Shown: positions 5,594 to 6,962, numbered from the stretch's first letter. The stretch: 19,284 nt of DNA from a bacterium (GCA_965233585.1 CBDDTI010000502.1:1-19284); one strand, 5' to 3'. The notes: a model not told the origin generated them from the sequence alone. Made by a program: numbers and translations.

Positions 5594-6136
5594 ATGGAAG
5601 TGATGGTCAGCAATGTTAAAATCAGTTGCAAAATTCGTCTCATCGACAGTGACAAAATTTCTTTTAATACCGATAATGTACTAAAACATTATAATAATTT
5701 TACTGTTGTTAAAAAAAAATATTCTTTTATTGTGTTTACTAAAACAAAGCAAAATCGAAATTTCCACGTAAATATTACTAAAATCCCTTCCACAGAGCAT
5801 ATACCAAAAGCATTAGACGAATTAAAACTTGTTATAAGTAGTAAATTTATTACTGAAAAGTTTAAAATAGAAAACATGACTTGTTTGTGTCATATGTCAT
5901 CAAAAATCAATTTATTAACATTTTACAACAATTTGAAATTAAATGTAGATTTTGAAATTATCCAAAAGAGATACGACTCTGAGAAATTTCCTGGAATGTT
6001 TTTAACATTAAAAAAGTGTTCTGCTTTAATATTTTCGTCTGGAAAAATAGTAATAATTGGAGCTTCCTGCGAAAAAGACGCTACACAAGGAATAAAAATT
6101 ATTTCTGAATTGCTGAAAAAATATAAAACTGAATAA
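5594..6136 (+). CDS. TBP: TATA-binding protein (TBP)-like factor, element-encoded, 180 aa
   Basis: C-terminal repeat FKIENM...YDSEKFPGMF...SALIFSSGKIVIIGA matches the TBP fold signature; the N-terminal repeat is degenerate. First ATG is at 5594; the track start at 5540 is a TTG overlapping the capsid gene. Confidence 0.9.
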   Translation: MEVMVSNVKISCKIRLIDSDKISFNTDNVLKHYNNFTVVKKKYSFIVFTKTKQNRNFHVNITKIPSTEHIPKALDELKLVISSKFITEKFKIENMTCLCHMSSKINLLTFYNNLKLNVDFEIIQKRYDSEKFPGMFLTLKKCSALIFSSGKIVIIGASCEKDATQGIKIISELLKKYKTE

Positions 6137-6242
6137 ATTCAATATAATAAAAGATTACGTCGGATTATTTGTAAAATCAGTTAAATTTTGAACTTCGTGC
6201 AATAAACAATGAAATTATGTTCAAAAATTAGATTGGATTAAA

Positions 6243-6962
6243 ATGTGCATTCATCAATATATAATAGAAGACACCAGACAAGGAGACGTAGTGTGCACCG
6301 AGTGTGGTTTAGTTATTGATAAAATATATTGTGATCCAAATTTAGAAACAAAATGGGAAAAAATAAAAAATTTAAATGAAGAATTTGAACAAAACAGCGA
6401 ACATTTAAAGAAGGAAAAAAATATTTTAAAAAATTTATGTAATAAATTACATTTAAATAATGATGTTACAAACACTATTTTTAATTTGTGGTCAGAAATA
6501 GCAGCGTGGCATTATCAAAAAAATGGAAAAATTAAAATTAATCCAAAAGGCTTAATTGCTATGGCATTGTATCAAAGTTTAATAGAGGAAAAAATTCCCC
6601 GCCCAATAAGTCACTTGTGTCAGGAAATTGGTATTAGCCCAAAAACGGTATGGCGATGGATAAAATTATACAGACAAGATTCGACCAACACAATTAAAAC
6701 AGAAAATTCTATAAAAGCAAAAGATATGGCAGAATATTTTTTACAGCCTCTACAGTTAAATTATCAAGAGATGACAACTATAAAAGAAAAACTAAATAAA
6801 AATGAAAATAGTTCTTTTGCTCCTAGGACTTTATTAGCAGCATGTGCTTATGCCTTTTTAAAAGAAACAAGAGCACTATATCCGAGCGTCAAAAATACGG
6901 CTCGTATTTTAGGCGTCAGTGTTATGTCTTTATACAGATGTCTTAAAAGTCTAGAGCAATAA
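6243..6962 (+). CDS. TFIIB: TFIIB-like transcription initiation factor, element-encoded
   Basis: Zn ribbon CIH...EDTRQGDVVCTECGLV followed by two cyclin-fold repeats (LCNKLHL...IAMALY...IPRPISHLC; APRTLLAACAY...ILGVS..SL..C). Confidence 0.9.
   Translation: MCIHQYIIEDTRQGDVVCTECGLVIDKIYCDPNLETKWEKIKNLNEEFEQNSEHLKKEKNILKNLCNKLHLNNDVTNTIFNLWSEIAAWHYQKNGKIKINPKGLIAMALYQSLIEEKIPRPISHLCQEIGISPKTVWRWIKLYRQDSTNTIKTENSIKAKDMAEYFLQPLQLNYQEMTTIKEKLNKNENSSFAPRTLLAACAYAFLKETRALYPSVKNTARILGVSVMSLYRCLKSLEQ

Follow-up and report, generated by a model that had tools for sequence, protein, structure and literature searches.

Phycodnaviruses without an RNA polymerase (RNAP), such as CpV-BQ1, the chloroviruses, and the prasinoviruses, encode both TBP and TFIIB, and these have been proposed to redirect the host's Pol II (PMC12085832; PMC5294985). 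In the beta- and gamma-herpesviruses, the vPIC contains a TBP-like protein (ORF24/BcRF1/UL87) that reads TATTWAA at late structural genes and recruits host Pol II (PMC6541308). The poxvirus factor VITF-3 is a stage-specific TBP/TFIIB pair that serves the viral RNA polymerase (PMC12917281). The Ariadnavirales are dependent on the nucleus and have lost the RNA polymerase, and they have kept a TFIIB homologue (10.64898/2026.08.29.747986). Polintons, Mavericks, and adintoviruses are 20-24 kb in length and possess a split pPolB-type polymerase, an rve integrase, an A32 ATPase, an adenoviral protease, and terminal inverted repeats (PMC8502044).

The element described here possesses adjacent genes for TBP and TFIIB. 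The preliminary description placed this pair outside the described core gene set of the Polintons, and this stands in part. No literature was found that describes a TBP-TFIIB pair or a promoter code in Polintons, although Repbase, subscription papers, and bioRxiv supplements might annotate it. On the other side, there is a "TBP" label in a figure legend of Starrett et al. (PMC8502044; 10.1101/697771), where it is applied to MELD viruses with adintovirus-like PolB, and there is the precedent of the RNAP-less phycodnaviruses (PMC12085832). Neither TFIIB nor a promoter code for Polintons was found in the accessible text of PMC8502044 and 10.1101/697771, including one supplement file. By term search, TBP and TFIIB are absent from the main texts of 10.64898/2026.06.19.733378, 10.64898/2026.10.13.758929, 10.1101/2023.08.22.554363, PMC11161782, PMC11131425 (with one small supplement file), and PMC10120064. 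In the accessible part of 10.1101/2022.05.25.493380, TFIIB concerns giant viruses only. RNAP-less giant viruses and herpesviruses already provide examples of this strategy; what appears to be new is the pair in a much smaller class of virus, together with a candidate variant-box promoter code.

The window, which is the whole stretch of DNA that was analysed, is 19,284 nt long. Positions 1 to ~12725 are the right half of an integrated Polinton and the remainder is host DNA. The following features were identified.

300..1093, plus strand: last exon of a putative protein-primed DNA polymerase (DTDS motif; exon limits as in full copies; AG of the splice acceptor at 298-299; other exons outside the window)
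1114..1121, plus strand: variant box TATTTAAG, intergenic, 43 nt ahead of the ATPase ATG
1157..1852, plus strand: A32-like packaging ATPase (Pox_A32, E 8.5e-4; homologue, E 6e-9)
1867..1874, plus strand: variant box TATTTAAG, intergenic, 34 nt ahead of the 124-aa ORF
1901..2275, plus strand: conserved 124-aa ORF (ORF and conservation across metagenome loci)
2278..3738, plus strand: 486-aa protein with two C2H2 zinc fingers (Pfam search)
3752..4234, minus strand: adenovirus-type cysteine protease (Peptidase_C5, E 0.006; homologue in metagenome locus L047, E 5e-6)
4238..5587, minus strand: putative major capsid protein, 449 aa, head-to-head with TBP with 6 nt between them (ORF and position)
5381..5388, plus strand: canonical box TATAAAAG within the antisense capsid gene, 213 nt ahead of the TBP ATG, a candidate early promoter kept in 3 related subfamilies
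5594..6136, plus strand: viral TBP ORF, 180 aa (Pfam; AlphaFold model and fold match; comparison of 35 viral with 80 archaeal TBPs)
5662..5669, minus strand: variant TATA-like box TATTAAAA, antisense within the TBP coding sequence, 82 nt ahead of the capsid ATG, a putative late promoter
6243..6962, plus strand: viral TFIIB ORF, 239 aa, with a CxH..CxxC zinc ribbon, a short linker, and two cyclin folds (family profile, model, fold match)
6971..7372, plus strand: putative core protein, basic and glycine-rich, 133 aa (ORF; present in 48 of 67 metagenome loci)
7379..8461, plus strand: rve integrase with a C-terminal chromodomain (Pfam rve, E 2.5e-9; Chromo, E 1e-4)
8468..10213, plus strand: putative minor capsid protein, 581 aa (position and conservation)
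10225..10937, minus strand: two small accessory ORFs of 103 aa and 134 aa (ORFs; copies in the assembly)
12108..12725, no strand assigned: right terminal inverted repeat region with internal 32-nt repeats (element end near 12725 in ...CTACA)
12726..19284, no strand assigned: host flank with non-LTR retrotransposon remnants (RVT_1, E 4e-21, at 16832-17689; hardly covered by other element copies)

The ORF map, the Pfam searches, and the fold matches bear out the preliminary report of adjacent, co-oriented, intronless TBP and TFIIB ORFs between the capsid gene and the core and integrase genes. The Polinton hallmarks, an rve integrase, an A32 ATPase, and an adenoviral protease, are all present in the window element by Pfam and homologue search. 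No RNA polymerase subunit-like ORF was found among the window ORFs by Pfam scan, as had been noted for the visible part of the element, or in the ORF lists of four full-length copies inspected by eye. Three ORFs are called major capsid, minor capsid, and core protein by assumption, from their position, size, and motifs; they had no meaningful match in Pfam, NCBIfam, PHROGs, or PDB sequence searches. Polintons have double and single jelly-roll capsid proteins, and these sequence searches gave no jelly-roll match for the two putative capsid ORFs. The 133-aa ORF is presumably a pVII/pX-like core protein, and we take the 124-aa ORF to be probably a virion membrane-active protein. The gene with the DTDS motif is presumed to encode a protein-primed family B DNA polymerase. 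It is strongly similar to an uninterrupted 888-aa ORF of another element, and it has no DNA_pol_B Pfam match.

Terminal inverted repeats of ~220-620 bp were identified in 14 assembly copies, which span 20.3-24.0 kb. Polintons and Mavericks have a target-site duplication of 5-8 bp. No such duplication was seen in any of the 14 full-length copies, whose ends are ragged and many of whose repeat pairs are just 80-90% alike, so they may be recombinant. The terminal repeat region from 11850 to 12560 has arrays of the 32-nt unit in both orientations that are able to form long hairpins. In assembly contigs C579 (near 500), C212 (near 2654), C224 (near 32534), and C592 (near 12499), the end of one element runs directly into a gene that belongs to another copy; in C579, the join lies ~35 nt inside another copy's TBP gene. 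The observed/expected CpG ratio is 1.04 in the element and 0.44 in the CpG-depleted flank (12726-19284), and this contrast fits a recent insertion into a methylated genome. In the host flank, 48-nt and 300-nt retrotransposon pieces are duplicated. There are also inverted repeats of 37-52 nt at 14560-15120, which resemble a small non-autonomous transposon.

The RNAP-less phycodnaviruses are like this element in having TBP and TFIIB without an RNA polymerase of their own. They are giant and lytic and have the extra factors VLTF3 and TFIIS, whereas the Polinton described here is 20-24 kb, integrates, and possesses an adjacent pair. By fold search, the Polinton TBP and TFIIB are ~6-19% identical to giant-virus homologues. 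The herpesvirus vPIC also combines a viral TBP-type protein with a modified TATA box at late genes, which on the Polinton side is a prediction. That complex has six proteins and a large TBP mimic, whereas the Polinton has a 180-aa true TBP fold, a true TFIIB, and a box in which position 4 may be C or G. The Polinton TBP has a weak fold similarity to ORF24/UL87 through the TBP domain (TM ~0.37), and no further vPIC member was recognised among the window ORFs. VITF-3 is cytoplasmic, works with a viral RNA polymerase, and forms an atypical ring, whereas the Polinton pair has near-canonical folds and no RNA polymerase. The Ariadnavirales are Nucleocytoviricota with VLTF2/3, and TBP is unmentioned in the accessible main text; their likeness to the Polinton is a TFIIB without an RNA polymerase. 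The adintovirus-type integrase, ATPase, protease, and terminal inverted repeats are shared by the window element, which also has a presumed polymerase of that type and whose lineage differs in its intron-bearing polymerase gene and in that no target-site duplication was seen.

The TBP ORF matches Pfam PF00352 above the cut-off (E 1e-16). Its AlphaFold model (pLDDT 90.6) aligns with human TBP at Z 17.1 and an rmsd of 2.3 A over 162 of 180 residues, and the next unrelated fold reaches Z 7.8. On the model, the ORF at 5594-6136 is a TBP with both repeats of the predicted saddle fold. Residues N7, N94, F48, F132, and F147, which belong to the central Asn pair and the intercalating Phe set, are invariant in all 35 viral lineages. 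F36 is F or Y in all 35, and its register against archaeal TBP is uncertain. T62 is retained, and the stirrup glutamate E130 is present in 32 of the 35 lineages. The first acidic stirrup residue is mostly Asn. At positions that are invariant in 80 archaeal TBPs, five substitutions are fixed in 34-35 of the 35 viral lineages compared: K9 and N60 (each from V), H58 (from K), K63 (from G), and V/I/L155 (from T). Concave-face residues beyond the Asn/Phe set thus deviate from cellular TBP (K9, N60, K63, V/I/L155), and it is the N-terminal repeat that is remodelled. We take K9, H58, N60, K63, and V/I/L155 to map to V71, K120, V122, G125, and T215 of yeast TBP, on the DNA-binding face near the center of the box. 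The TBP profile scores higher against archaeal than eukaryotic TBP; an archaeal origin on this ground was set aside, since repeat symmetry and long branches can cause such scores.

The TFIIB ORF matches the Pfam zinc ribbon PF08271 (E 4e-8), and the TFIIB repeat reaches just E 0.002, below the cut-off. Pfam HTH matches on this ORF were rejected as a separate domain, as they are the HTH parts of the cyclin folds. A family profile was built from 96 sequences, which are the query and 95 of the 150 matches listed. It recognizes human TFIIB at E 5e-32 (115 bits), followed by yeast TFIIB (79), Brf1 (59), and Brf2 (47); on cores alone, human TFIIB scores 92 bits and the archaeal protein 66. The zinc ribbon was matched in 73 of the 96 relatives, and the zinc ligands are present in 92 (C2), 87 (H4), 95 (C18), and 96 (C21) of them. 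The model (pLDDT 90.9) aligns with the archaeal TFB core at Z 17.7 and an rmsd of 2.7 A over 179 residues, and with the human core at Z 17.1. By this model, the ORF at 6243-6962 is a TFIIB with two predicted cyclin folds. In the profile alignment, ~51 residues of the human B-reader and B-linker are missing. The linker has a median span of 37.5 among the 96 sequences and is unconserved, and the cyclin core begins at residue 51, as against 76 in Brf1 and 110 in human TFIIB.

Both proteins have the same folds as cellular TBP-TFIIB (PDB 1C9B, 1VOL, 1AIS; Z 15.5-18). The Polinton pair differs in its ~20% identity, its remodelled N-terminal TBP repeat, and its deleted B-reader/linker. Across cellular homologues, the structural identity is ~9-28%, and the pair is as divergent as the preliminary description had held. 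AlphaFold modelling of both proteins, which that description had proposed, gave TBP and TFIIB folds. Atlas look-alikes, which serve as leads only, agree with both assignments.

There are 41 TBP loci in the assembly. TFIIB is the next gene in all 41, and each gene is intact in 39 of 41, with one shortened TFIIB left out of the intact count. Identity among the copies ranges from 100% down to ~34% for TBP and 26% for TFIIB. The dN/dS ratio is 0.19-0.31 for TBP in 9 of 10 copy pairs, with one pair saturated, and 0.12-0.30 for TFIIB in all 10; the capsid and protease ratios are similar. With 41 pairs and dN/dS of 0.12-0.31, the pair is neither a single copy nor free of purifying selection, two findings that would have spoken against the preliminary description. 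A scan of metagenomes yielded 67 loci (L001-L067) with the cassette protease-capsid-TBP-TFIIB-core-integrase, and so the synteny sought by the preliminary description recurs in other Polintons. In 60 of these, which are all that extend far enough, TFIIB comes after TBP; the remaining 7 break off within TBP or no more than ~140 nt from it. A head-to-head arrangement of capsid and TBP is present in 58, and the other 9 loci start at or near TBP. Trees of TBP, TFIIB, capsid, and integrase for the 17 lineages having all four genes have zero conflict among splits with support of at least 95. The recurrent synteny and the concordant trees indicate that the pair is old and inherited with the virion module. 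By this record, TBP and TFIIB appear to be ancient core genes of one widespread Polinton lineage and not cargo. Recent host capture or decay is ruled out by the purifying selection, the metagenome synteny, and the concordant gene trees.

The TBP profile matched 361 protein clusters, and the 120 matches listed are all viral-type in length and score; the TFIIB query matched 249. A search for longer homologues found none. Divergent TBP/TFIIB matches in metagenomes and contaminated bacterial bins may often be such Polintons. Scans of IMG/VR with TBP, capsid, and integrase gave one locus in total, L068 (20.6 kb). This near-complete relative was placed in a giant-virus bin and may be binning carry-over, and the homologue P0209, named from a Flavobacterium record, may be the same. 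Terminal inverted repeats were not found in seven long metagenome contigs, which may thus be incomplete genomes. Contigs of four runs span the whole element, which indicates presence and not expression. Of the 55 metagenome loci measured, 53 have a TFIIB frame that begins 4-67 nt before TBP ends and that lacks a separate box, which suggests one transcript. In the window, 106 nt separate the two genes, and AATAAA occurs at 6132 and 6146.

A box site with the consensus C-NN-TRTYTAAR lies antisense in the TBP gene, ~80-135 nt ahead of the capsid ATG, in all 35 lineages. These lineages are separated at <80% TBP identity; 29 are from metagenomes and 6 from the assembly, and the box register in those 6 was placed by hand. 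The capsid site of the window, TATTAAAA, is off consensus. C is found at position 4 in 16 of the 35 capsid sites, and cellular TBP has a poor tolerance of C at this position of the TATA box. The Leu codon under the box is TTA in 29/29, against a background of 39% and 13-67% at 13 other Leu columns. It is still TTA after thinning to <60% identity (19/19) and <50% identity (12/12). At the codon two beyond the box Leu, the first base is A in 20/20, though six amino acids are encoded there. The motif as a mere by-product of protein conservation is ruled out by these synonymous-site tests. The private promoters proposed in the preliminary description gain sequence support from the variant box and from this synonymous-site constraint.

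A held-out pattern, derived from the capsid-upstream site alone, had 63 non-capsid matches, and 17 of them sit 20-150 nt upstream of a same-strand ORF, where 5.9% are expected; the reverse-complement control gave 2/91. Intergenic variant boxes are mostly 31-51 nt from the ATG, which fits a box at about -30 from the start site, and the capsid box, at ~80-135 nt, is farther away. The canonical TATAWAWR is found ahead of TBP at -42 to -50 in 9 of 29 lineages (dinucleotide shuffles 1.0), although these nine may be kin and, as the lineages are related, p-values are optimistic. It is also found ahead of the first DNA polymerase ORF in 7/11 (shuffles 0.6) and ahead of capsid in 0/29. The variant box precedes capsid in 27/29, a circular count as this is the pattern's source, and DNA polymerase in 0/11. 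It precedes minor capsid in 8/18 (shuffles 1.8), where G at position 4 was admitted after seeing the minor-capsid sites. Among the metagenome lineages, there is no enrichment ahead of protease (0/19), integrase (1/20), or the core gene (1/22), and the counts are not significant ahead of the ATPase (3/11) or the 124-aa gene (2/12). A weight-matrix score exceeds shuffles for most of the protease, integrase, core, ATPase, and 124-aa genes. In the assembly, the minor capsid gene lacks a variant box, and 5 of 7 representatives have a canonical TATAAAAA ahead of it at -56 to -60. The TATTTAAG boxes of the window are perhaps readable by host TBP too. Taken together, the canonical and variant boxes sort by gene class, which suggests a candidate two-class promoter code. 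The changes on the TBP face near the box center match where the motif departs from TATAWAWR, a correlation that falls short of proving altered specificity.

The assembly is a prokaryote bin that also contains eukaryotic contigs. Large gene-dense contigs are found alongside eukaryotic ones with TTTAGGG or short TTAGG arrays (among contigs C13; C224, C382, C408; C745-C747), and these mixed types indicate that the assembly holds DNA of several organisms. Short TTAGG arrays are present on three contigs, two of them element-bearing, and are a weak hint that may point to an arthropod host. A host TBP was not found in the assembly, where all 41 TBP matches are viral. Comparison with an uninterrupted homologue places breaks in the DNA polymerase gene at recurring positions in 14/14 loci. 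Most of 30 inspected gaps have a GT donor and a pyrimidine-rich AG acceptor. The window starts inside one such intron, with the acceptor at 298-299, and the late genes are intronless. In this family, the last polymerase intron measures 1.3-2.3 kb and has nested antisense ORFs of 171-396 aa (window 1-299; contigs C288 ~22600-24900 and C30 ~10500-11800). Spliceosomal GT-AG introns require nuclear Pol II transcription, at least for the DNA polymerase gene. The preliminary description had left the choice between host Pol II and a helper-virus polymerase; judging from the introns, host Pol II is favoured and the helper polymerase disfavoured.

It is proposed, with moderate confidence, that TBP and TFIIB form a two-protein late-gene switch for host Pol II, with the early genes read by host factors. 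Host TBP/TFIID and Pol II would transcribe the DNA polymerase and TBP(-TFIIB) genes, as their canonical TATA boxes and introns suggest. The viral TBP, with its remodelled DNA-binding face, would bind the variant box C-NN-TRTNTAAR. The viral TFIIB would join it by way of the conserved acidic stirrup, and its zinc ribbon would dock Pol II with no B-reader. The capsid-module genes would then turn on. Because the putative capsid promoter would fire antisense to TBP from within that gene, transcription of the late genes might lower TBP expression as well. A bolder version is possible, though we regard it as doubtful. In it, an altered-specificity TBP and a reader-less TFIIB would be an orthogonal, TFIID-independent complex that takes host Pol II to C-NN-TRTNTAAR promoters only, with the antisense capsid promoter as a feedback loop. 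This would be the smallest known viral initiation system. If true, it could serve as a present-day example of the way in which small Polinton-like viruses start to gain a transcription apparatus of their own.

Other roles for the pair can be weighed against the same evidence. Several structural genes are without a variant box, the minor capsid gene in this assembly is preceded by a canonical one, and the main DNA-contacting Asn and Phe residues of TBP are retained. These points would agree with a general booster that acts on all promoters of the element, or that stands in for host factors where chromatin is silenced or where the cell has too little TBP. The variant boxes (TATCTAAG/TATGTAAG) would then be weak TATA boxes that host TBP reads as well, and early and late genes would not be separated. 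The segregation of canonical and variant boxes by gene class and the C at position 4 of many capsid sites, which cellular TBP tolerates poorly, make this unlikely. The ~51 missing B-reader/linker residues and the Asn at the first acidic stirrup position could also suit a decoy or repressor. Such a pair would bind boxes or Pol II and block initiation for lack of a B-reader, leading to provirus latency or host gene shut-off. A pure repressor needs no module to dock Pol II, whereas the zinc ribbon and both cyclin folds are retained here, and we consider this role quite improbable.

There is little probability that the pair acts as in a virophage, working in a cytoplasmic factory for the RNA polymerase of a giant virus that infects the same cell. 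The spliceosomal introns in the DNA polymerase gene require nuclear transcription. It is true that giant-virus TBP and TFIIB rank first among viral proteins in the fold search and that the relative L068 is in a giant-virus bin of IMG/VR, but those matches share just ~6-19% identity and cellular folds match at least equally well. The last role, which is very improbable, would have the pair mimic TFIIIB for Pol III or tether the integrase to promoters. The linker is short like that of Brf1 (core start 51 vs 76, with human TFIIB at 110) and the genes adjoin the integrase, whereas the profile prefers TFIIB to Brf1/2 and the Brf C-terminal extension is absent. The boxes are also ahead of long protein-coding genes, and AATAAA signals follow TBP.

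Few Polintons are known to have any described regulator. For the late-gene switch, this lineage supplies two small proteins, a candidate box, and a clear prediction that is open to in vitro work. If TBP has naturally changed its specificity and TFIIB naturally does without a B-reader, the pair would probe how much of the core Pol II machinery can be spared. The viral TBP, TFIIB, and box could also yield an orthogonal promoter system.

Two further observations concern other members of the family. More distant subfamilies (assembly contigs C530 27569-30313, C58, C98, C593 36393-39298, and C93) have two tandem putative major-capsid genes, and in C593 and C93 there is a variant box at both. A conserved intergenic site, CA(C/G)TATTTAAA, is found between the polymerase and protease genes, upstream of an unassigned plus-strand ORF. 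It is located in metagenome loci L047 (5279), L001 (6223), L013 (5133), L019 (4111), L060 (5784), L032 (6658), L056 (4736), L050 (5253), L023 (4187), and L030 (275).
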